A stretch of DNA of 42,681 bases from a virus (lineage: Duplodnaviria; Heunggongvirae; Uroviricota; Caudoviricetes): IMG/VR virus record IMGVR_UViG_2718217863_000001; one strand, written 5' to 3'. Below, piece by piece: positions 13,944 through 36,416 of the stretch; positions within the stretch are counted from its first letter, which is position 1; each line of letters starts with the position of its first letter. A program made the position numbers and the translations under genes. The notes under the pieces are model-generated. The model was not told the DNA's origin, made no database searches, and was given only the letters and a program-made list of their open reading frames with translations.

Positions 13944-15029
13944 ATGGGAAACTCCAAACGCATTGCTTTTAGAATAGTTATTACGCTCAACAACAACTCA
14001 GCAACCGTCGTACCTGAATGTCATAATTTAAAATATAAGTTCTCCAGAAATCACACTGACAAACTAGAAATCACTGGAGATACCATCACAATATCCGGTA
14101 GCCGTTCTGGAAAGCCTAATCTCGATGAAATATTCACCAATAATCAAAGCGAGGTTTATTTTCAGGTAATTAAATCATATATTTATTACTGCGTCGCGAA
14201 TGGCAACATATTTAAAATATTGAAAATAGAATGTCATAATAACGACGACGCCATCGATAAAGTATACTCTGGTGATGAGATACGAAATCTCAACGTGTCA
14301 AACAATGCACCAAATATAAGAAAGATAAACAAGGCAAAAGCGGCAATAATTTTTGAGGCCACGCCTGAAAGTAATAAATACCTGTACGCTATGAGCACAT
14401 TAATCCGTTCACTTTGTAGTGACGACAATAACGACATTTTCGAAAAAATATGGAAGTCCTATAACTCAATTTACCGAGTCATCAGCAATGAAAAGCAAGA
14501 GGTTGAATGTCTTAATGAAATGGGGAGGGAGATAATAAGCAACCCTGCAAACTACCCTCTTTCTGTAAATGCCGCTCAAGCCATTTCGGGTAATGATATA
14601 TCGGATTCCACTCGGTGGTGGAGGATGTTAGAGAATAAATTCATCATACGAGGAAATAAAAAAACTCGAGAAAATAATTTCTCTACCTTCCTTACTCAAT
14701 ATCAAGACTTTCGATTAAATGAAGTATCTCAGAGGAACGTTGATATTGAAAAAAACTTTTGGACCAACTCCAACCTAAAAACCACAACAATAAATGACAT
14801 TGCAAATAAAATAAATAACAACCAAAGAAATGATGCCGAAGTAGTTGATGCAATTTGTAATCATTACGCCTACTTCCTTAGAAATAAAACCCTGCATGGA
14901 GATCAAACAGATCATTCTTTCAGGTTCATACCCTATAACAAAGAAGAGAAAACATTGAAATTCACCTCGAATATTTTGTTTTTACTGGTGTGCGACCTGA
15001 TAAATAGCCACACACTCCAGACAAGTTAA
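13944..15029 (+). CDS. Orphan 361-aa AT-rich moron protein of unknown function (candidate defence/abortive-infection gene; possible HEPN-like Rx4H motif)
   Basis: Long ORF on the strand opposite all flanking late genes; Asn/Lys/Ile-rich composition unlike neighbours; sits at the V/S junction where P2 carries an accessory ORF; motif RNKTLH near C-terminus. Confidence 0.7.
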   Translation: MGNSKRIAFRIVITLNNNSATVVPECHNLKYKFSRNHTDKLEITGDTITISGSRSGKPNLDEIFTNNQSEVYFQVIKSYIYYCVANGNIFKILKIECHNNDDAIDKVYSGDEIRNLNVSNNAPNIRKINKAKAAIIFEATPESNKYLYAMSTLIRSLCSDDNNDIFEKIWKSYNSIYRVISNEKQEVECLNEMGREIISNPANYPLSVNAAQAISGNDISDSTRWWRMLENKFIIRGNKKTRENNFSTFLTQYQDFRLNEVSQRNVDIEKNFWTNSNLKTTTINDIANKINNNQRNDAEVVDAICNHYAYFLRNKTLHGDQTDHSFRFIPYNKEEKTLKFTSNILFLLVCDLINSHTLQTS

Positions 15030-16441: not shown

Positions 16442-17191
16442 TCACTGATCTCCTTCGGTCAACGGAGATTGTATTTTCCGCATTGATTCTCCTTTAAGTT
16501 CGATCTTGATACTGCCATGAACCAGTCGATCTAGGATGGCATCCGCATGTGTGGAGTCTCCGATCATTTTGTACCAGTTTTCCACCGGCAACTGGCTCAC
16601 TACGATGATTGAGCCTCGTTGGTACATCAGATCCACTATTTCCAGCAGGTCGCTACGCTGTTCTGATGAGAGAGGTTCCAGCCCCCAGTCATCCAGAAGC
16701 AGCAGATCGCTATTATTCAGCCTGGTCAAAAGTTTGCTGTATCTTCCATCAGCATGCCCCTGATAGCACTGTTCCATCAGCGCTTTAAGGCGATAATAGT
16801 AGACCTTGTATCCCTGTCGGCAGGCATTATGACCAAGTGCACATGCCAGGAACGTTTTACCGCTGCCGGTGGCCCCGGTCAGTAAAATATTTTGTTTCAG
16901 GGTTAACCAGTTTCCCTGACTGAGTGAACGGATGAGGGCCCTGTCCAGCCCTCTATTGTTACGATAATCCAGCTTTGATAACTCAGCATTAAGTCTGAAC
17001 CGTGCATGTTTGATCAGACGCTCTGCCTTCCTGTTTTCACGGCAGGTTAGTTCTTCTGCTGTCAGTAATGACAGGCGTTCTTCGAAGCCCAGCTCCTGGT
17101 ATGTGCCCGGCTGAGCAAGTTGCTTTTTAAGCGCATCACGGAAGCCGGTGAGTTTAAGTGCGGTCAGTTGTTCGTAAAGATGATTCATCAT
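16442..17191 (-). CDS. istB: IS21-family helper ATPase IstB
   Basis: 249 aa; Walker A GATGSGKT; IstB-like. Confidence 0.9.
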   Translation of the reverse strand: MMNHLYEQLTALKLTGFRDALKKQLAQPGTYQELGFEERLSLLTAEELTCRENRKAERLIKHARFRLNAELSKLDYRNNRGLDRALIRSLSQGNWLTLKQNILLTGATGSGKTFLACALGHNACRQGYKVYYYRLKALMEQCYQGHADGRYSKLLTRLNNSDLLLLDDWGLEPLSSEQRSDLLEIVDLMYQRGSIIVVSQLPVENWYKMIGDSTHADAILDRLVHGSIKIELKGESMRKIQSPLTEGDQ

Positions 17192-17202
17192 TGGATCCCG
17201 TA

Positions 17203-18744
17203 TCAGTGGTAATACTCACTGCCGCGTACGTTTTCGTGTTCCATCGTGGATAACAGATCTGGTTTTGGATCCTGAACAGGTTGTTTATCCAGACCTTTTT
17301 CCAGGATCGATTTAATACCTGACAGACGCCATACCTTTGTTTTCAGAGCTCTTGCACATGCTGCATTAAGTCTGGCTTTACTGTATTTTTTATGAAGGTT
17401 CAGGAGTCCAAGGCAGAAGCGATAGCTTTGTTCCGGATGTGGACGAGAGTTCAGTATATGAAGCACATAACTATGAGTTTCACTGCCTATGTGCCCCGCC
17501 CATTCCAGAAGACGCTCTGGCGTCCAGGTGGCATGCTGTCGATGAGCTTCAGGCATGTGCTCGTTGCGGGTACTGTAGCCATAAGTACGCTTGCGCGGGT
17601 GCACAGCAACCTCCTGCCCCTGATTGAAGAGTCTTACCAGTTCTCCGGAGATCCATGCTTCCAGTTGCTGGCCTAACAGCGAACATGGAACCGAGTAGTA
17701 ATGTTTGTCGATTTCCACGTGGTAATCGGCATGAACTCTGACTTTCTTCACCAGGGTGTAACTGTAACTGGCTTCAGGAAGAGGCTTCAGTGCGGGTTTA
17801 TCAAGCTGGATGAAGAGTTCTGCACGTGAATAACCCAACTTCTGCATTATTTTGTTATTCAGTCTTTCCAGCAACTCCCGAATGCGCTGATTAAGCGATG
17901 CAAGGCTGTAGAAGATCTCATGCCTGATTCGGGCCATGATCCAGCGTTCAACAACCTGAACGCCAACTTCAGCTTTGGCTTTATCTTTCGGTTTACGTGG
18001 CCGCGCAGGCAAAACTGCGACATTATAATGCTCAAGCATCTGCTGGTAGGTAGGGTTAACGTCAGGATCATACTTACATGCCCTGGATGTGGCGCTTTTC
18101 AGATTGTCCGGAACAACAAGTTCAGGAACGCCACCCAACCACTGGAAGCAGCGAACATGACTCATCACCCAGTCTTCAAGCTGCTGAGACCAGGTGGCCT
18201 CTGCCCATGTGTAACTTGATGCCCCGAGAACAGCTACGATGACCTGAGCAGTTCTTATTTCTCCGGTCTCAGGGTCGGTAACGCCAACGGTAGGTCCACA
18301 GTAATCAACGAAAAGTTTTTCGCCAGCTTTATGTACCTGACGCATTGATGGTGAAGTGGTTTTGAGCCATTCACGGTACATCCGGCAGTAATGGTTATAG
18401 CTGTAAAAACCGCCTGGATTACGCTCACAGTATTCTTCCCAGAGTAGCTGCAGCGTCACGCATTTATTACGCAGTTCCCGGTGTACTGTAGCCCAGTCAG
18501 GCAGAGAGTGCTTCTTCATCTTAACCTGGGTCTGAAGGAACGCATGTTTTAGTTTTGTATCATCCCATCCTGTAGGTAAGGGCCACTGCTTTATGCCAAG
18601 TTGAGCCGCCCGATTAGCATATCTGGATACAACGGAAGGGGAGATTGCAAGACTACGACCAATTTGTCGATGGCTGAGTCCAACACCGTATTTAAGCCTA
18701 AGAATTTCTTTAAGTTTTCTCATAGAAATTGGAACTGTTGGCAT
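17203..18744 (-). CDS. istA: IS21-family transposase IstA
   Basis: 513 aa; N-terminal HTH, DDE integrase core; upstream of istB. Confidence 0.9.
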   Translation of the reverse strand: MPTVPISMRKLKEILRLKYGVGLSHRQIGRSLAISPSVVSRYANRAAQLGIKQWPLPTGWDDTKLKHAFLQTQVKMKKHSLPDWATVHRELRNKCVTLQLLWEEYCERNPGGFYSYNHYCRMYREWLKTTSPSMRQVHKAGEKLFVDYCGPTVGVTDPETGEIRTAQVIVAVLGASSYTWAEATWSQQLEDWVMSHVRCFQWLGGVPELVVPDNLKSATSRACKYDPDVNPTYQQMLEHYNVAVLPARPRKPKDKAKAEVGVQVVERWIMARIRHEIFYSLASLNQRIRELLERLNNKIMQKLGYSRAELFIQLDKPALKPLPEASYSYTLVKKVRVHADYHVEIDKHYYSVPCSLLGQQLEAWISGELVRLFNQGQEVAVHPRKRTYGYSTRNEHMPEAHRQHATWTPERLLEWAGHIGSETHSYVLHILNSRPHPEQSYRFCLGLLNLHKKYSKARLNAACARALKTKVWRLSGIKSILEKGLDKQPVQDPKPDLLSTMEHENVRGSEYYH

Positions 18745-23526: not shown

Positions 23527-25296
23527 ATGACCACTACCAACGACACATCACTACTCAGCGACCCGCGACGACAGGCCGCGCTTTTGTTCTGGCAGGGCTA
23601 TTCCGTGCCACAAATCGCGGAGCAGTTACAGGTCAAGCGCCCTACGGTGCAGAGCTGGAAACAGCGTGATAAATGGGAAGAAACCGCCCCGTTAAACCGG
23701 GTCGAGTTCACGCTCGAGGCGCGGCTGATTCAGCTCTATGCCAAGCCTGACCTGACGGCTCACGACTTTAAGGTCGCAGATTTTCTGGCGCGCCAGATGG
23801 AGCGCCTCGCGCGGGTAAACCGCTACGGCCAGACCGGCAACGAAGCGGATTTAAACCCGAACGTGGCCAACCGCAACAAAGGGGAAAAGAAGAAGCCGAA
23901 AAAGAACTTTTTCAGCGAAGAGGCTATCGGGAAACTCGAAGAGATTTTCCTCGAACAGTCTTTCGACTATCAGCTCGAGTGGTGGCGCGCGGGGCTGGCG
24001 CACCGCATCAGGCACATTCTGAAATCGCGACAGATTGGCGCGACGTTCTATTTTGCACGTGAGGCACTGTTACAGGCACTGAAGACCGGCCACAACCAGA
24101 TATTTTTGTCGGCCAGTAAGACGCAAGCCTATGTATTCCGTAAATACATTATCGCCTTTGCCCGACAGGCTGGCGTCGAGCTTACCGGCGACCCGATTGT
24201 GCTCGGCAACAATGGCGCGGAGCTGATGTTTCTCGGTACCAATGCCAACACGGCACAGAGTCACAACGGTGACCTGTATGTCGACGAAATTTTCTGGATC
24301 CCCAACTTTCAGAAACTGAAGCGCGTCGCTGGGGGCATGTCGTCACAGGAGCATTTACGCACGACCTATTTTTCGACCCCCTCATCGCTGGCGCACGGCG
24401 CTTACCCGTTCTGGTCGGGTGAGCAGTTCAACAAGGGGCGCTCAGACAAGAGCGAGCGCGTCGATATCGATATCAGCCACGCCGCACTCGCAAAGGGCGT
24501 CGCCTGTCCTGACGGCCAGTGGCGGCAGATTGTCACCATCGAGGACGCACTCGCCAAAGGGTGCACCCTGTTCAACATCGATACGCTGAAGCGCGAGAAC
24601 AGTGTCGATGAGTTCCGCAACCTGTTTATGTGCGAGTTCGTCGACGATAAAGCGTCGGTATTCCCGTTCGAAGAGCTACAGCGTTGCATGGTCGACAGCC
24701 TCGAGAAATGGGAGGACTACGCGCCATTCGCCGACCGGCCATTCGGTCACCGCCCGGTGTGGATTGGCTACGACCCGTCATTACGTGGCGACAGCGCCGG
24801 GTGCGTCGTTATCGCGCCGCCGGTCGTTGCCGGTGGCAAATTCCGCATCCTCGAGCGCCACCAGTGGAAAGGGATGGACTTCGCTCAACAGGCCGAATCC
24901 ATTCGCGAGCTCACGCAGAAATATACCGTGGAATATATCGGCATCGATGCGACCGGGCTCGGTCAGGGCGTCTTCCAGCTCGTGCGCTCGTTCTACCCGG
25001 CAGCGCGGGAAATCCGCTACACGCCGGAAATGAAAACCGCGATGGTGCTCAAAGCCAAAGACACCATTCGCCGGGGTTGCCTCGAGTACGACGTCAGCAC
25101 GACCGATATCACGCAGTCGTTTATGTCAATCCGCAAAACCATGACCAGCAGTGGTCGCAGCTCGACCTATGAGGCCAGCCGCACCGAGGAGGCCAGTCAC
25201 GCCGATCTCGCCTGGGCAACCATGCACGTATTAATCAATGAGCCGTTAACCGCCGCCACCGGTGAGCAGTCATCCAGCATCATGGAGTGGAACTAA
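23527..25296 (+). CDS. P: Terminase ATPase (large) subunit P
   Basis: 589 aa; synteny P-Q divergent from O. Confidence 0.9.
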   Translation: MTTTNDTSLLSDPRRQAALLFWQGYSVPQIAEQLQVKRPTVQSWKQRDKWEETAPLNRVEFTLEARLIQLYAKPDLTAHDFKVADFLARQMERLARVNRYGQTGNEADLNPNVANRNKGEKKKPKKNFFSEEAIGKLEEIFLEQSFDYQLEWWRAGLAHRIRHILKSRQIGATFYFAREALLQALKTGHNQIFLSASKTQAYVFRKYIIAFARQAGVELTGDPIVLGNNGAELMFLGTNANTAQSHNGDLYVDEIFWIPNFQKLKRVAGGMSSQEHLRTTYFSTPSSLAHGAYPFWSGEQFNKGRSDKSERVDIDISHAALAKGVACPDGQWRQIVTIEDALAKGCTLFNIDTLKRENSVDEFRNLFMCEFVDDKASVFPFEELQRCMVDSLEKWEDYAPFADRPFGHRPVWIGYDPSLRGDSAGCVVIAPPVVAGGKFRILERHQWKGMDFAQQAESIRELTQKYTVEYIGIDATGLGQGVFQLVRSFYPAAREIRYTPEMKTAMVLKAKDTIRRGCLEYDVSTTDITQSFMSIRKTMTSSGRSSTYEASRTEEASHADLAWATMHVLINEPLTAATGEQSSSIMEWN

Positions 25297-26333
25297 TGAG
25301 CAAAAAACGCAACAAGCGCCAGCAGCCGCCGCGCCCCCCAAACCACACCGCCGCACCGGCGCAGAGCATGGAAGCATTCACCTTTGGTGAGCCAACGCCG
25401 GTACTCGACCGCCGCGATATTCTCGATTATGTCGAGTGTATCGATAACGGCCAGTGGTACGAGCCGCCGGTGAGTTTCTCCGGGCTGGCGAAAAGTATGC
25501 GCGCCGCCGTGCACCACAGCTCACCGATTTACGTGAAGCGTAACATTCTGGTGTCGACCTACATCCCGCACCCGCTGTTATCCCGTCAGGACTTCACCCG
25601 GTTCGCACTCGACTATCTGGTGTTTGGCAATGCGTTTATCGAAGAGCGTCGCGGCCTGACCGGCAAGCCGTTAAAACTGGAAACCTCACCGGCGAAATAC
25701 ACCCGCCGTGGCATCGAGGATGACGTGTACTGGTATATTCAGTCCTACACGCAGCCGCACCAGTTCGCGCCCGGCTCCGTCTTCCACCTGCTCGAGCCCG
25801 ATATTAATCAGGAGCTTTACGGGATGCCGGAATACCTGAGCGCGCTCAATTCAGCCTGGCTGAATGAATCGGCGACCCTGTTCCGTCGCAAGTATTACCA
25901 GAACGGCGCGCATGCGGGTTACATCATGTATGTGACCGACGCCGCGCAAAGCAGCACCGACGTCGAGGCACTGCGAAAGGCGATGCGCGACTCAAAAGGA
26001 CTCGGCAATTTTAAGAATCTGTTTTTTTACGCGCCGAATGGTAAAGCAGACGGAATTAAAATTGTGCCACTGAGCGAAGTCGCCACGAAGGATGACTTTT
26101 TTAATATCAAGAAAGTCAGCGCCGCTGACCTGCTTGACGCACACCGCATCCCATTCCAGCTTATGGGCGGTAAGCCAGAGAACGTCGGCTCAGTGGGTGA
26201 CGTTGAGAAGGTGGCAAAGGTCTTTGTGCGTAACGAGCTGACCCCGCTACAGGCACGGTTCATGGAGTTGAACGAGTGGGCGGGTGAAGAAATTATCCGC
26301 TTCGAAAAATATAGCCTCGGCGACGACGAGTAA
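25296..26333 (+). CDS. Q: Portal protein Q
   Basis: 345 aa from MSKKRNKRQ; TAATG overlap with P stop; ORF-track start 25287 is an alternative. Confidence 0.85.
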   Translation: MSKKRNKRQQPPRPPNHTAAPAQSMEAFTFGEPTPVLDRRDILDYVECIDNGQWYEPPVSFSGLAKSMRAAVHHSSPIYVKRNILVSTYIPHPLLSRQDFTRFALDYLVFGNAFIEERRGLTGKPLKLETSPAKYTRRGIEDDVYWYIQSYTQPHQFAPGSVFHLLEPDINQELYGMPEYLSALNSAWLNESATLFRRKYYQNGAHAGYIMYVTDAAQSSTDVEALRKAMRDSKGLGNFKNLFFYAPNGKADGIKIVPLSEVATKDDFFNIKKVSAADLLDAHRIPFQLMGGKPENVGSVGDVEKVAKVFVRNELTPLQARFMELNEWAGEEIIRFEKYSLGDDE

Positions 26334-26508: not shown

Positions 26509-26527
26509 ATGCTATCCCCGCCACGCC
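26509..26527 (-). other. Candidate cos cohesive-end site (19 nt)
   Basis: Minus-strand GGCGTGGCGGGGATAGCAT resembles remembered P2/186 cos consensus GGCG(A/T)GGCGGGGAAAGCA(C/T); lies about 180 bp beyond Q as in P2. Confidence 0.55.
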
Positions 26528-26673
26528 TGCCCGCTTTAAGGGTCGGTTTTAATGCAGTTGCATGACCACTCTGGATCTGCGCCAGCTCTGGCATTACACG
26601 TCCAGAACTAGCAAGCCTTGCGAAGGCAAAACCATGCTTCTTATACATGCACAGCTAAAAACAGAAAATAACA

Positions 26674-26700
26674 TAAAAAAACCGGCATCAAGATGCCGGT
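26674..26700 (-). terminator. Rho-independent terminator (bidirectional character) downstream of acyltransferase
   Basis: Hairpin CCGGCAT-CAAG-ATGCCGG with A7/T7 run on the minus-strand 3' side. Confidence 0.7.
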
Positions 26701-26799
26701 TTAGTTCATATCATATCATGCTTGCACTTCTGGCCTATAAATGTGCTGAAAATACTATTAAGTAAAACATCCATGATCATCGTTCTGCTGAAGCCCTGT

Positions 26800-28017
26800 T
26801 TAATTAGCTTTATCAAGGCGTCCCCCCACCACCATCCGCTTGTAATTTATTGCGAACAACTTAAGTTTTTCAGGGAACTTTGACGCCAAAATTATTGACT
26901 TTCTGTCTACATATGAATAAAAGGGCATTGATATCAAAATAGTTATCATCGAAGTTAAGATAAATGTAACAAACGCACCAACGGACGGCGACGCAATGTT
27001 TTTGTAAACCCAAAAACCAACTATAGATATAACAAATGGATGAAGCAAGTATATTGAAAATGACAACCTCCCAATAAACAAGACTACATTTTTGCTCATC
27101 CCCCTTAAACATCTCCCATTCACAAAGACAGAAGCAATAATCAAAAAAGAACCAAGCGATATTGTAAACTCTGGCCATTGTATTAATATATCGCATTGAA
27201 ACTGAAGGTAGAGGTAAAATTCAACCAGATCTTTATACGCAGTGCTCGCCGGTGCATACCCAACAAGATAAAGGCCAATAAACAACATAAGAAGCGATAC
27301 AAGCTTTCTTAACCGTCCATTATTTTCACTTATCTCGAAAGTTGATAAAAACACACCAGAAAGGAAAAGCCCATAATAAATTATATTAATACTACCAGAC
27401 AAAAACATACAAACAAATGAAATAAATGACAACCAGCGAAGAATGGTCTTGTTCTCACCAAACAGAGATATAAATCCGTATACCAATATAGAACCAAAAA
27501 ACTCAATACTAATAGTCCACAGAACATAGTTATACTTTATATTACCAAAAAGCATAGCGCCAAATGAAGCATCCCATATGGCTGACACTATATTCCCATC
27601 AAAACTAAACGCAGTCATTAACGGCATTGATGCAGCGGGGCTATCCTTATCCGGAAAAAAGCCCAACAACATTATAAAATAGCAAATAATCACAGATGCT
27701 GCTACGGGAACCCCAAGCCTAATGTATCTCTTCAATGCTGATGCTTGTATATAGCGTATTTCGTTATTATTTTTTTGGCAACTCAGTGACAAAACCAACC
27801 CGCTCAAAACAAAGAATAAGCTAACAGCAGATCCCCCCTTATAGAAAAAAGTAAAAGGGCTATTAAATAAATTTTCTTGCCACTTGCTATCAAACATACT
27901 GCCAGAATGCACCGAAGGTATAAACATTAAAAATGAATGCGATAAAACGACAGCCATGGCTGCCACACCTCTTATCCCATCAAAGATTTTTACATTATTT
28001 CTCTCATTATCACTCAT
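26800..28017 (-). CDS. Acyltransferase family 3 integral membrane protein (OafA/Oac-like O-acetyltransferase), cargo gene
   Basis: 405 aa, about 10 predicted TM helices; N-terminal GIRGVAAMAVVLSH motif characteristic of acyltransferase-3 family; very AT-rich. Confidence 0.8.
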   Translation of the reverse strand: MSDNERNNVKIFDGIRGVAAMAVVLSHSFLMFIPSVHSGSMFDSKWQENLFNSPFTFFYKGGSAVSLFFVLSGLVLSLSCQKNNNEIRYIQASALKRYIRLGVPVAASVIICYFIMLLGFFPDKDSPAASMPLMTAFSFDGNIVSAIWDASFGAMLFGNIKYNYVLWTISIEFFGSILVYGFISLFGENKTILRWLSFISFVCMFLSGSINIIYYGLFLSGVFLSTFEISENNGRLRKLVSLLMLFIGLYLVGYAPASTAYKDLVEFYLYLQFQCDILIQWPEFTISLGSFLIIASVFVNGRCLRGMSKNVVLFIGRLSFSIYLLHPFVISIVGFWVYKNIASPSVGAFVTFILTSMITILISMPFYSYVDRKSIILASKFPEKLKLFAINYKRMVVGGRLDKAN

Positions 28018-28631
28018 GCAAAAAACCTTTTATAATAAAAAATGTCATTTCGATTAACGTATTGGTTATTATTGTGTTATAACTGACAACCAACCTTAAA
28101 AAAACGCGGCATTATAGCACCTTAAGCCTGTTGTATGAATATCATTATTGTTTTGACAGGAAGAGTTCCGTTTACGCCCCACCTAACCTTCGGAGCACTG
28201 AGTAGTGCTCCCAATGAGGTTGGAATAAGGGGAGATTCAAAAAATAGCTGACCATTCTATGCAAGCAACCCAACTACCAGCATACAACTTGTTTTTTCTC
28301 GCAACTTACTCAGCCTTTGTTAATCGTTCTTCAGCATGGGTTGCAGAGAAAACTAGTGAAAAGGAGTTATTTTTCATCAAGTTGCCTCTCACTATTTCTG
28401 CAATCAAATTCAATGCGATTTCACGGTCTCTTTCCTTACAAGTCCCTTCAGCCGTTAGACGCGCAATCATTTCGACTCGCTCAATCATAACGTGCTCACT
28501 TAATTCTCTATCCACACAACCTCCACAACGAGATACTGTATAAACATACAGTAACACGTATTGATAAAAAATGTGAAGGAAAAAAACCAATAAATACACT
28601 GTATGTGCATGATATGGATGAATATTAACGG

Positions 28632-30872
28632 TTATATTTTCATTGCCAGTTCAGTTAAAACCGCAACGCGATTGAGGATTTCTGTAGCCTTGGTCTGATG
28701 TTCCTTAGCTCTATCTTGATGCGATGGCGCTGCGGAAAATATTTCGCCTTTGGCCGTTCCGCGTAACCATTTACCATCAAAACAACTTTTACCACCGACC
28801 ATCAGGTGCAGGGCTTCGCCCCGGCTGATAACGATGCCAGTTGTCAGATGTATCTCGTCGATAATTTTCGCTAAAACTACGTTTTGCTCATTCGTTCCGT
28901 GAATGAATTTTCGCCGTATTTGTGGTTTTTGCTTCCTGAGTCGGTTTGTCAGCTCTCGTCTTTCACGTCGACTCAAGGGTTTTGATAAATCGAGTTCCGG
29001 TGGATCGCTTTCGCTTCCCGTATAGTTATTGACAGAACTCCGAGAGGGCGCAGGAGCGCCCTTAACGTCAACGGCCAAATCAACTACACGCTTCGGCACA
29101 ATTTTCCACTGCGTTAGCCGGGTTAAAATCGGGGCGCCAGAGCCTACAGAGGAATCGTACACGCCACGGATGCAGACGGTTTCCTCACCATACAGGTTAA
29201 ACTCGGCGCGCGGTTCATACAGCGTGCGCACCTGCAAGTCATCACGACGGACAAACGGACCACCCTGCGCATTGACATATCCAGCCCAATCACCGGCATC
29301 AGCGGCGTCATGAACGGCGGCAAATTCAATACTCAGGCCGTGCGCGGTTTCGGTATCAGCGAGACGACGCAACTCACGGTAGACCGTCACAGGCGCACCG
29401 CCGATAAACTGAAATTGTCGGATGTGCCAGCGCGCCGCCCATGCTGATACAGCGGGGGCAGTCTCTTTTAGGAGCTCACCACTTTCGTCATCGGTTTCAC
29501 CATCGAGAGCATAGCCGTCGATATTTTTGGAAATGTATTTAGCGACATAGCCGGTAGCGCTGCCCTTTTCCGCGTCAATGGCCTCGGCATGAAAACGCGC
29601 TTTTTTGGCTTTATCGCTTCTCAGTTCATGGCGGTCTTCCTCCCACGCATAATCACGGATGATGAGACGCACACTCTCGACGTCTTCCGGCAACATGAAC
29701 ATAAGCATGTGCCAGTGCGGCGTTCCGTCGTGATGAGGCTCAGCAACACGGATGCCGAAAATGCGGATTTCTTCCCGGTGTAGCTTGGCGCGTATGCGTG
29801 CCCAAAGACCGGTTAGATAGCTCTGCGTGTCCGAAGGGCTGGCACCGTTCCATTTGCTATTACGGTAGCCCGCTTTAGTCGTGGCGTGATATTTAGACGG
29901 TGCGGTTAAAGTGTAAAACTCACCGACATAACCGAGCTCATTGCAGATATTTTCAAACCCACGGATGCGGGTCATCAGCTCGCAGCGGCGTATTGCAGGG
30001 TTAGCAACCGAACCATCGTATTTTTCAATCAGACTGATGCGGTTGCCGTCTTCGTCTTCGAGCTCCAGTCCTTTAAGAAATTCGCGCGTGCGGCGTTTCT
30101 GCTCGCGCCAGTCAGTCACGCAGTTTTTACTCGCGTAGGCGTGCTTTTTCTTACTGACGTTGCCAACAGCAATTTGTAGATGTTCGCGCCATGCAGACGC
30201 AATGCGACGTAAACGACCACGCCACCAAACCTCATTAAACATGCGCATTACTGCCGGTGCGATTTCATCCTCACCAAAATATTTTTTAGTCACACGCTCC
30301 CATTTCGGCGGTGTAACGTTGAATTGCAGGGAAATAAAACCGGCGCGCATGTACCAGGCGTACAGCGTTTTGAGTTCGCTAAATCCGGTGTCATCAATAT
30401 CAGCCAGTTCAGCACGAATGAAATTAGCGATATCAGCGGCAAGCAGGTCAATATCAGCGCGCGACATATCCGGGAGGCGGTTAAATCTGGCGACCATATT
30501 GACCATGCGTGACGCCAGATATTGCTTAAGCTGGGTATCAAAATGACCATCGAAAACAGAGGCTGATACATTGCTGTTGATGCCCGAGCACTCATATTTT
30601 TTTGCGACGAGTTCAAGACGTGGCAATGCCTTTTTGCAGAAGCTGATTAAAAAGGCATTGGCTCGTTGACTGCCCTGATTTTGCTCCAGTACCGCAGCGG
30701 TACGATAAACATCAAAGCGCACACACTCTGGCTGGAGAGAAAGCACCGTTCTCGCATGCAGCAAAGCCGCGAACATACGGTCGCGGCGATGCTGTTGGTC
30801 ATAGGTAAGATATGGGCTGGCTAATGCCGACCGTGGGGCATTCCACGGAAACGCGTAAACTACACCCGTCAT
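28632..30872 (-). CDS. A: Replication initiation endonuclease A (rolling-circle)
   Basis: 746 aa; position at end of early operon. Confidence 0.85.
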   Translation of the reverse strand: MTGVVYAFPWNAPRSALASPYLTYDQQHRRDRMFAALLHARTVLSLQPECVRFDVYRTAAVLEQNQGSQRANAFLISFCKKALPRLELVAKKYECSGINSNVSASVFDGHFDTQLKQYLASRMVNMVARFNRLPDMSRADIDLLAADIANFIRAELADIDDTGFSELKTLYAWYMRAGFISLQFNVTPPKWERVTKKYFGEDEIAPAVMRMFNEVWWRGRLRRIASAWREHLQIAVGNVSKKKHAYASKNCVTDWREQKRRTREFLKGLELEDEDGNRISLIEKYDGSVANPAIRRCELMTRIRGFENICNELGYVGEFYTLTAPSKYHATTKAGYRNSKWNGASPSDTQSYLTGLWARIRAKLHREEIRIFGIRVAEPHHDGTPHWHMLMFMLPEDVESVRLIIRDYAWEEDRHELRSDKAKKARFHAEAIDAEKGSATGYVAKYISKNIDGYALDGETDDESGELLKETAPAVSAWAARWHIRQFQFIGGAPVTVYRELRRLADTETAHGLSIEFAAVHDAADAGDWAGYVNAQGGPFVRRDDLQVRTLYEPRAEFNLYGEETVCIRGVYDSSVGSGAPILTRLTQWKIVPKRVVDLAVDVKGAPAPSRSSVNNYTGSESDPPELDLSKPLSRRERRELTNRLRKQKPQIRRKFIHGTNEQNVVLAKIIDEIHLTTGIVISRGEALHLMVGGKSCFDGKWLRGTAKGEIFSAAPSHQDRAKEHQTKATEILNRVAVLTELAMKI

Positions 30873-34662: not shown

Positions 34663-36126
34663 TCATTTGCCGAGCATCTCTCTTAAATCTTGAGCCCAAT
34701 GCGTATCGTCAGATTGGATCGTTCCTTCAACATCAGTAAGCAGTTTTTGCTCAAGAATTGTCTCGGCATTTCGACTCTGGCTAAAGTATCTTACCGTTTC
34801 GGCAAAGTCCCAATTCTCATCTGCAAGCAGGCGCGGCTGGAAAGAATGACAGTAGATTGCAGCTATATCTTTACCCATAAAGTCAAAATCAGAAATCAAT
34901 TCGCAAATTTTCATATCACGTGCAAATTCGATCTGAGGGCCATGCAAGGTTTCATATCCAATATGAATTATTGTTGATTCTCCAATCGGAGCCTGCTTTA
35001 CAGCCTGAACAAGTACCCTTTTTATATCTTTTGCCTTTTTATCGACAGACTCATCAGCGAGACAAATCCATTTTGCGCAGAAAGGCATTTCTATCTCATC
35101 AATGAATACATTTATTGTACTAAGTTCATCATTGCTAAAAGTGCATAACTTTGCGTTGCAAACCATTGTATAACTTCCAAACGGGTCATACTGGTCATCT
35201 AATAAGGAATTTAATTGAGGAGAAGGATATTTCACATGCCACTTTCTTAAGTGGTTATCCACCCGTTCCATATCAATTAAGTTAGCCTGAACCAAAATAT
35301 CATCGCTCTCACATACTGCAATCTTACCTTTCACAAGATGATCAGAGCCGTAAATTTTTGCTACAGCACCGAGAAACACATCGATACGCGTTTTTACTAT
35401 TTCAGTTTTGAAAATCACATCAAAAAAAACTGGCTTATGGTATCGAGTAATCAATGGTCGAGCCATTTCCCACCGCTTCAACCACTCCGCCCTTTCTTCT
35501 TCTGAGTACTGAGTCACCTTTGCTAATCGCTTGCACTCAACATAAAAAATATCAGTGCCTTTAACAACTTTGAGGTCTGGTGTTTTATGAGCTCCTGTTT
35601 CTGGAATGAACTCAACTTCCCAGCCATTTTTCAAATAGCAGATAGCCACAACCAACTCAAACAAAATGGAATCAGGCTGGTTGATTGTCTTAACAAGCAA
35701 GTCATTTAATTTGGATTCAATACCTTTGACCTGCTTCAACTTTTCGCTATGTTCACCGATAACTGCGAAAAAATGCCAAATTCTTGACGACTGAGCTGGC
35801 TCATCTACTGTTGGGCGATCAGCCAAAGATTCAACTAAGTACAAATACCATGCAATCCAGTCATCATAGAATGCCAGGCGTGCATCTTTCTCATGGAAAG
35901 AAACGTCAGATTTTCCTGTGAAAAGGCGCTCCGACATTTCGCGGAAGTAAGCCAAAACCGCCCCACGACGCTCAACCCATTTATCTTCACCCATTACATC
36001 AATAAACCAACGGTATGCTGTTTTTATCTCTTTGACTAATGGGGCATCATGTCTATGATTGAAGCGTTCAAAAAATGCAGCATACTCATCTTCAACACTC
36101 TGATTTTTGGTATTTTTTTCACCCAT
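34663..36126 (-). CDS. Orphan 487-aa protein with PD-(D/E)xK nuclease-like core (candidate defence nuclease); alternative start 36159
   Basis: Motif TPDLKVV-x9-YVECKRL (D-x13-ExK) after hydrophobic strand LFELVVAICYL; GGTGGA RBS 7 nt before ATG at 36126; lies between int and attR; AT-richer than backbone. Confidence 0.7.
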   Translation of the reverse strand: MGEKNTKNQSVEDEYAAFFERFNHRHDAPLVKEIKTAYRWFIDVMGEDKWVERRGAVLAYFREMSERLFTGKSDVSFHEKDARLAFYDDWIAWYLYLVESLADRPTVDEPAQSSRIWHFFAVIGEHSEKLKQVKGIESKLNDLLVKTINQPDSILFELVVAICYLKNGWEVEFIPETGAHKTPDLKVVKGTDIFYVECKRLAKVTQYSEEERAEWLKRWEMARPLITRYHKPVFFDVIFKTEIVKTRIDVFLGAVAKIYGSDHLVKGKIAVCESDDILVQANLIDMERVDNHLRKWHVKYPSPQLNSLLDDQYDPFGSYTMVCNAKLCTFSNDELSTINVFIDEIEMPFCAKWICLADESVDKKAKDIKRVLVQAVKQAPIGESTIIHIGYETLHGPQIEFARDMKICELISDFDFMGKDIAAIYCHSFQPRLLADENWDFAETVRYFSQSRNAETILEQKLLTDVEGTIQSDDTHWAQDLREMLGK

Positions 36127-36370
36127 CGTGATTCCACCTAGCTTATGCGGTTTATGCATTCAAGATTAACTAACTTGCATGTTATCATTTTTGATATCAG
36201 GCAAGTGTTAGTCACGCTATAAAGGCTAGGTTGCCGTTTAAAGGCAATATGATAAGTGGCGATAAAGTGGCGGTAGAAATGGCTGATAATGTCTAATCAC
36301 TGGCAAACGCTGGCCATTTATGTCAATGATAAATAAAGCAAACTATTGATTTTCGGTTGTTCAGGTAGGA

Positions 36371-36416
36371 ACTCATAATCGCCTGGTCGCTGGTTCAAGT
36401 CCAGCAAGGGCCACCA
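36371..36416 (+). repeat. attR: displaced partial 3' end of tRNA-Ile2 (direct repeat of 2843-2888)
   Basis: 46-nt match with 2 mismatches; lacks 5' half of tRNA. Confidence 0.75.

Follow-up and report, generated by a model that had tools for sequence, protein, structure and literature searches.

An acyltransferase gene with its own predicted promoter at the place of orf97 in a 186-like prophage: a likely lysogenic-conversion moron of the p95 operon

The region between gene A and the portal gene Q is a known accessory and defence hotspot of P2-like phages (PMC9122126; Rousset et al. 2022). In phage 186, the operon found there runs from the p95 promoter and its LexA box through tum, t95a and orf97 to the terminator t95b, and according to its annotation, expression of Orf97 blocks infection by 186. 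Tum combines an antirepressor half with a DinI half; PSP3 and Fels-2 encode the two as separate genes, and when tum is split, the upstream gene carries the antirepressor activity (PMC3121763). Among acyltransferase-3 (AT3) membrane proteins, two functional motifs have been described as essential, an R-X10-H motif in the first transmembrane helix (Arg14 and His25 of OafB) and an RXXR motif at the third (PMC9833829). Here we examine a stretch of viral DNA of 42,681 nucleotides (IMG/VR record IMGVR_UViG_2718217863_000001, referred to as the window, whose positions are used throughout), in which an AT3 gene lies in the accessory slot between gene A and the cohesive-end site cos of a 186-like (Eganvirus-type) prophage.

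Our analysis suggests that this locus is a p95 operon whose cargo has been exchanged, and we consider it likely that the AT3 gene is a moron composed of a promoter plus a gene, sitting at the place of orf97 and encoding a lysogenic-conversion O-acyltransferase that would act on a surface glycan. Read along the minus strand, the operon consists of p95 with its LexA box, a 69-codon tumA-like gene (tum'), a 166-bp spacer, a predicted extended -10 promoter, the AT3 gene and a homologue of t95b. The slot is bordered on the left by gene A (28632-30872, minus strand), a replication gene of 746 aa that matches Pfam Phage_GPA at 3e-135, and on the right by the cos region GGCGTGGCGGGGATAGCAT (26509-26527, minus strand), which we take to be the cos overhang by homology with the cos sites of P2 and 186; the end of the linear 186 record aligns to window position 26528. 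Homology to 186 and to a related 186-like prophage (L004) ends at about 28314-28343. The match to L004 restarts at 28123, and no homology to 186 is found between about 28314 and 26661, so that orf97 is absent. The AT3 gene is followed by an intrinsic terminator with a 10-bp stem and a T-run (26672-26702, minus strand; hairpin 26702-26679), the strong terminator that the initial annotation had reported there. It aligns with the annotated t95b at the end of the 186 p95 operon and with its counterparts in L004 and Citrobacter braakii, and the backbone homology with relatives restarts exactly at 26702. Because the t95b homologue closes the AT3 gene and the backbone resumes there, the gene lies inside the p95 unit, at the place of orf97. 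A terminator scan gave no terminator-like site from p95 to the AT3 gene and t95a is gone, which together make read-through from p95 plausible. The placement in the gene A-cos accessory slot thus agrees with the initial annotation. Its statement that the enzyme stands where 186 carries tum is partly wrong, because the AT3 gene replaces the DinI-like half of tum plus orf97 and not the whole of tum, a short TumA-like version of which is still there.

The gene (26800-28017, minus strand) encodes a membrane acyltransferase of 405 aa that consists of the AT3 domain only. Pfam Acyl_transf_3 (PF01757) matches it at 1.1e-25 (90.8 bits against a cutoff of 31), with residues 12-367 covering profile positions 4-325 of 326, and PHROG 3333 ('O-acetyltransferase') matches at 5e-28, so the protein belongs to the AT3 family, as first proposed, and not to a different membrane family. 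The N-terminal motif FDGIRGVAAMAVVLSH, also recognised at that stage, is present and contains R16 and H27, the two residues of R16-X10-H27. H27 is invariant in alignments of 44 and 52 sequences, and R16 is invariant in the former and found in more than 90% of the latter. The RXXR motif lies at the cytoplasmic face of the third transmembrane helix as R97-Y-I-R100, with both arginines invariant in the two alignments. An AlphaFold2 model built from the 52-sequence alignment is all-helical (pLDDT 93.6, pTM 0.91). No SGNH domain was found, as PF01757 is the sole Pfam domain and residue 405 closes a long terminal helix. The PDB, in which there is no AT3 structure, yielded no solved-structure relative when searched by sequence. 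The best-probability Foldseek matches against the PDB are to human HGSNAT and are weak (probability 0.8-0.89, TM 0.37-0.41, E >0.2), which is compatible with the idea of a TmAT superfamily (PMC12423673) without being strong. As the initial annotation noted, the block is AT-rich: the G+C content is 36% in the AT3 gene versus 51% in gene A and 56% in the portal gene (25287-26333, plus strand). A literature search on AT3 genes in P2/186-like phages found nothing relevant, nor experimental data for this AT3 subfamily.

Relatives of the enzyme show that the gene is maintained by purifying selection. In L004, a protein about 70% identical is encoded at the place of orf97 downstream of an intact tum of 146 aa. 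In C. braakii (L020-L022, 5377-7898), a copy 96.5% identical in protein sequence lies between a DUF1889 gene and mug-rpoD in a 2.5-kb prophage remnant, the counterpart of window 28641-26112 with 92.7% identity in nucleotide sequence. The remnant contains p95, tum', the AT3 gene, cos and the 3' end of the portal gene, and the AT3 gene is the only intact gene among them; the LexA box is mutated and tum' frameshifted, with the AT3 promoter identical and its reading frame intact. In all 13 related contigs among the matches listed, the C. braakii copy lies in a prophage remnant. A second remnant (L005, 2108-4233) encodes an enzyme 78% identical, and here too the LexA box and tum' are broken while the promoter and the 405-aa frame are intact; L005 looks like an older version of the C. 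braakii remnant at the same site. The ratio of nonsynonymous to synonymous rates (dN/dS) is 0.09-0.19 against these three relatives, and all four versions are 405 aa long at 70-96% identity. Given the conserved length, the low dN/dS and the retention in remnants, the enzyme is useful to the host independently of tum' and p95. These data also bear on the suggestion that the AT3 frame is a silent or decaying passenger without function. AT-rich foreign DNA is often silenced, and in one of the 37 Escherichia coli genomes that carry the cassette (L024, NZ_CP183161.1, 884-2102) the acyltransferase gene is split by a 1-bp frameshift. However, the low dN/dS, the constant length over four contexts, the intact catalytic motifs, the retention of gene and promoter in remnants whose neighbouring sequence has decayed, and the occurrence of the exact 405-aa protein on 394 contigs make a functionless passenger very improbable.

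More distant homologues provide insights into what the enzyme may modify. A homologue of 44-45% identity is encoded directly after a P22-type tailspike gene at the end of a prophage, one of 39% in a Pantoea stewartii prophage stands likewise directly after the tailspike gene at the prophage end, and another of 39% lies between the tailspike and integrase genes of Pantoea phage PA-1, which was the sole match in a tblastn search of a phage collection (50,697 records, E <= 1e-3). Two further homologues lie within polysaccharide loci, one of 46% identity inside a Wzx/Wzy cluster with a sialyltransferase and one of 36% inside an rml/glycosyltransferase cluster of Pseudomonas putida. In the 17 IMG/VR contigs with neighbours listed, the AT3 gene is often within a few kb of the contig end, and among 10 scanned neighbour proteins of distant IMG/VR relatives, about half are tail-fibre, tail-fibre-assembly or T7-type tailspike proteins. 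This AT3 subfamily, less than 30% identical to Oac, is thus repeatedly linked to receptor-binding protein genes, and its tailspike, tail-fibre and polysaccharide-cluster contexts form the pattern of enzymes that modify a receptor glycan. With homologues in such places, a lysogenic-conversion role, which the initial annotation had proposed, appears to be the best reading of the gene. The enzyme would take an acyl group, probably acetyl, from cytoplasmic acyl-CoA through a membrane pore and, on the periplasmic side, attach it to a polysaccharide of the cell surface. Its acceptor would most likely be the O-antigen, possibly capsule or another glycan, and acylation would change the serotype and the phage receptor properties of the lysogen.

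It is also conceivable that the enzyme acylates a glycan other than the O-antigen, such as capsule, enterobacterial common antigen (as WecH does), colanic acid, the core of lipopolysaccharide (LPS) or periplasmic glucans (as OpgC does), in which case the benefit would go to the host through immune evasion or stress tolerance and not consist in phage exclusion. AT3 proteins do act on many different glycans (PMC9558356). NCBIfam gives a weak MdoC/OpgC match (residues 291-362, E 7.5e-6), strains of sequence types ST617 and ST167 carry an extra capsule cluster, and the gene is kept in Citrobacter without any phage, which suggests a benefit at the level of the host. On the other hand, the closest informative contexts are tailspike-adjacent or within O-antigen-type clusters, the OpgC match is partial and far under its cutoff (25 bits against 338), and no homologue was seen in enterobacterial common antigen or opg loci. 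We therefore regard a non-O-antigen acceptor as unlikely and favour an acylated receptor glycan of the O-antigen type.

Upstream of the enzyme, 614 bp separate gene A from the AT3 start. The initial annotation described this region as a 615-bp structured leader; instead, it contains an SOS promoter with a LexA box, a real gene and the AT3 gene's own predicted promoter. The p95-type promoter (28548-28577, minus strand) has a -35 element TTCACA (28577-28572) and a -10 element TACTGT (28553-28548) separated by 18 nt, both of which align base for base with the annotated p95 of phage 186, and its function here is inferred from that homology. The LexA box TACTGTATGTTTATACAGTA (28534-28553, minus strand) overlaps the -10 element and is a 20-mer identical to the annotated LexA site of 186; the window as a whole has two CTGT-N8-ACAG sites, of which this is one. 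A GGAGG ribosome-binding site (28524-28520) precedes the GTG start of tum' at 28515. The gene (28306-28515, minus strand) encodes a protein that shares 82% identity with residues 1-67 of 186 Tum (146 aa) and then stops, at the same domain boundary at which PSP3 TumA ends. The small reading frame at 28306-28488, first described as of uncertain reality, is therefore the inner part of a genuine 69-codon gene for the N-terminal part of Tum. The DinI-like residues 68-146 have left no trace anywhere in the window, spacer included, by sensitive tblastn, and neither Pfam nor NCBIfam gives a DinI match. In the PSP3 record, the 60-aa tumA is annotated as 'UV induction of prophage', and tum' matches PHROG families of short proteins (61-66 aa). 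Nearly every one of its best 120 relatives in the database is a stand-alone protein 63-117 aa long, several are named 'Tum protein', and stand-alone homologues of 63-92 aa number more than 100. Thus, tum' is probably a TumA-type antirepressor under LexA control and inducible in the SOS response, neither a pseudogene nor a partner of the enzyme. The proposal that the small frame could be a partner gene is contradicted by the two prophage remnants, since in both tum' has decayed while the enzyme and its promoter are intact. A 94-aa frame antisense to tum' (28259-28543, plus strand) has no Pfam match and overlaps the conserved tum' frame, and we treat it as spurious. At the end of tum', a 28-nt island GAAGAACGATTAACAAAGGCTGAGTA (28305-28335) is perfectly conserved in the window, Citrobacter and L005, with flanks of about 75% identity; it is possibly a recombination joint or a translational signal.

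Behind tum' follows the spacer (166 bp, 28140-28305, minus strand), which travels with the cassette and has no homologue detectable in 186 or L004. It is common to L005 and C. braakii, and a search with 28100-28345 in distant mode gave matches confined to the same 37 cassette-carrying E. coli genomes. Next comes the predicted sigma-70 promoter of the AT3 gene (28111-28139, minus strand), with TTCATA, 17 nt and an extended -10 element TG-n-TATAAT. It is the best match in the region, with 10 of 12 positions plus the TG, and predicts a 5' untranslated region (UTR) of about 87 nt (85-90). The elements recur at the same spacing in the relatives, identical in C. braakii, with TATGAT in L005 and with TTCATG and TATGAT in L004, in surroundings that have diverged. 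L004 lacks the whole spacer, yet the gene and the promoter are kept. No GATC site is found upstream of the AT3 gene, and phase variation of the gtr or oafB type was rejected on the absence of a GATC/OxyR-type signature.

The spacer holds the perfect 8-bp hairpin GGAGCACU-ACUC-AGUGCUCC (28192-28211, minus strand), which is real and lies 3 nt from where it was first placed. A role as a terminator is not supported, as a run of U after the stem is absent on both strands, the terminator scan does not score it, and it is poorly conserved. It is probably incidental or a minor RNA-end element. Another interpretation, in which the 614 bp form a long structured leader (riboswitch, attenuator or small RNA) with the hairpin as its key element, draws on that hairpin and on the length and AT-richness of the region. 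However, p95 with the LexA box, tum' and a conserved promoter that leaves a UTR of about 87 nt together explain the region, and L004 keeps gene and promoter without the spacer. Folding of the 293 nt from the tum' stop to the AT3 start (28018-28310) gives z = -0.13, no better than shuffled sequences, and Rfam has nothing at threshold, with one sub-threshold match (E 0.44) over the terminator. The hairpin stem is shortened to 7 bp in C. braakii, and L005 has lost the left arm. The window has 20 perfect hairpins with stems of 8 bp or more (0.47 per kb), and in this intergenic region the LexA box is the only one besides the hairpin of the spacer. A structured leader is thus exceedingly improbable, and it was rejected in favour of an SOS promoter, a short gene and a separate promoter for the enzyme. 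Taken together, the initial annotation is upheld for the enzyme, the slot, the terminator and the hairpin and fails for the leader, and its interpretation is supported in part.

Turning to the prophage as a whole, a tRNA gene with anticodon CAT (RefSeq tRNA-Ile, 2813-2888) adjoins it, and a 23-bp direct repeat of the 3' part of the tRNA (36384-36406) forms the att repeat. The prophage that they bound measures about 33.5 kb and is inserted at the ileY tRNA, where phage 186 also integrates. It encodes a 186-type CI repressor (66% identical), which adds support for tum' as a normal gene. The RefSeq/NCBI annotation gives the order integrase, CI, CII, Fil, gene A, 'DinI family protein (pseudo)', 'acyltransferase family protein', portal and terminase, with the gene A product labelled 'replication endonuclease' in NZ_CP018109.1. 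A 2.4-kb region is 100% identical to many complete E. coli chromosomes, ST617 included, and among 5,426 complete E. coli genomes, 37 have the cassette region. Those carriers for which a type could be assigned are members of the multidrug-resistant ST617 lineage (in silico O89b:H9/10); several of them (MRSN346595, SCEC020023, 675SK2) are described as ST617 with in silico serotype O89b (PMC6392093). In a viral contig of 30.1 kb (L026, IMGVR_UViG_2906139326_000003), the module is 97% identical and accompanies a gene A with a different N-terminus. The cassette therefore occurs in at least two variants of 186-like phages, one of which seems to have the length of a complete phage. There are two other cargo positions in the prophage. 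A second AT-rich frame (about 36% G+C, 361 aa, 13944-15029, plus strand) lies on the opposite strand between the virion-morphogenesis gene and the baseplate gene V, a position that corresponds to the Z/fun slot of P2. Pfam, PADLOC and PHROG give no match for this frame, which is a candidate accessory or defence gene. The third position, between the integrase gene and the att repeat, holds a frame of 498 aa (34663-36159, minus strand) whose only match is PHROG 37220, 'unknown function'.

Several points weigh against the reading of the AT3 gene as a conversion moron that alters the O-antigen. P2/186-type phages adsorb, as currently understood, to the LPS core and not to the O-antigen, so that it is not evident what the phage would gain from self-exclusion in the style of Sf6. 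The host lineage, ST617 with in silico O89b, has wzm/wzt and hence the ABC-transporter route of O-antigen export, for which periplasmic modification by AT3 enzymes is less documented. Identity to the Oac protein of Sf6 is only 26% and is limited to the N-terminal half, and PADLOC finds no known defence model for the AT3 protein (0 families, as for tum'). We infer the substrate, the acyl group and the phenotype from sequence, and both the AT3 promoter and the read-through from p95 are predictions. The prophage itself may be lysis-impaired or defective, as an ISEc12 element (IS21 family, istA/istB, 16442-18744) splits its lysB, an Rz-like spanin gene.

It could also be that tum' is dead, and this belongs to a broader alternative, in which the 3' half of tum and orf97 were deleted or replaced, the prophage is decaying and non-inducible, and the AT3 gene is the sole gene under selection. 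The PGAP label of tum' is a DinI-family pseudogene 'missing C-terminus'. Over the last 10 aligned codons (58-67), tum' departs strongly from 186, with seven nonsynonymous and no synonymous differences, and in Citrobacter and L005 the gene is frameshifted or stopped and the LexA box mutated. Besides the ISEc12 insertion, four E. coli genomes (e.g. L023, NZ_CM136163.1, 429-1649) point the same way, with an ISKox3 copy that separates gene A from tum' and probably uncouples tum' from p95. In the window, by contrast, tum' has an intact reading frame and ribosome-binding site, and p95 and the LexA box are undamaged, the latter being identical to that of 186. The gene ends at the domain boundary, precisely where the functional split tumA of PSP3 does, most of the best 120 relatives are stand-alone proteins of 63-92 aa, and codons 1-57 show a synonymous excess over 186 (13 synonymous against 5 nonsynonymous differences). 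A dead tum' in a decaying prophage is accordingly somewhat doubtful in our view, and the 'DinI pseudogene' label is probably better replaced by that of a TumA-type antirepressor.

If the conversion moron is read within a p95 operon, the AT3 gene would be expressed constitutively from its own promoter and probably boosted by read-through from p95 in the SOS response, and the tumA-like gene would probably still serve as the SOS-inducible antirepressor of the prophage. A more far-reaching idea is that of SOS-coupled surface remodelling, in which DNA damage co-induces the antirepressor and a burst of glycan acylation over a constitutive basal level, linked to the swapping of cargo at the Tum boundary. 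We think this rather improbable. Were it true, the cell surface would be altered at the very time at which this prophage, or others in the same cell, are induced, released or competing phages would possibly be kept from adsorbing to sibling lysogens or debris, and the Tum domain boundary would be a recombination joint at which 186-like phages exchange the cargo that follows a minimal TumA antirepressor. This coupled expression is the only less ordinary possibility raised by the locus, which otherwise is a routine moron of a known type of phage cargo and does not challenge current understanding. It does matter in practical terms, as phage-borne AT3 enzymes alter serotype, vaccine epitopes and phage susceptibility, and with a copy in a prophage remnant of C. 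braakii, the enzyme probably alters a clinically relevant surface antigen. Two annotations also change, with the 'leader' becoming an SOS switch and the 'DinI pseudogene' a probable TumA-type antirepressor.

Compared with phage 186, the locus keeps the slot after gene A, an identical LexA box, a near-identical p95, the t95b homologue and then cos, whereas the spacer, the promoter and the AT3 gene have taken the place of the DinI-like half of Tum, t95a and orf97. The short tum' resembles PSP3, with its TumA and TumB, and Fels-2, which likewise have a stand-alone N-terminal Tum protein ending at the same boundary (60 aa in PSP3, 69 aa in the window); it is only 33% identical to PSP3 TumA, and a tumB (DinI) gene is absent downstream.

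For the enzyme, the nearest parallels are Oac (OacA) of Shigella phage Sf6, OacB, OacC, OacD and Oac of PhiV10, which are likewise AT3-only proteins encoded by AT-rich accessory genes of temperate phages with their own promoter. They share the R-X10-H and RXXR motifs, and their mechanism, acetylation of the O-antigen with seroconversion and phage resistance, is what would be expected here by analogy. The alignment with Sf6 Oac (333 aa against 405 aa) extends over 202 residues, and hhalign gives a probability of 95.7% over 195 columns. Sf6 Oac is encoded between the tailspike and integrase genes of a P22-like podovirus, whereas the gene in the window occupies the gene A-cos slot of a 186-like myovirus, beside neither a receptor-binding protein gene nor the integrase; its homologues of 39-45% identity are found in such places. 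Unlike the carriers of oac, the phage here is not known to use the O-antigen as its receptor. OafA and OafB (GtrC family II, Salmonella) and OatA have an AT3 domain with the same essential motifs, and OafB is borne by a prophage (BTP1) and protects against phage. In all three, a fused periplasmic SGNH domain does the final transfer, unlike the protein in the window with its AT3 domain only. Finally, the old/tin-type cargo of the P2 hotspot between gene A and the portal gene Q occupies the same cos-proximal hypervariable locus and consists of phage-exclusion genes. Unlike that cargo, the AT3 protein belongs to no intracellular defence system recognised by PADLOC, and it would act via the cell surface.

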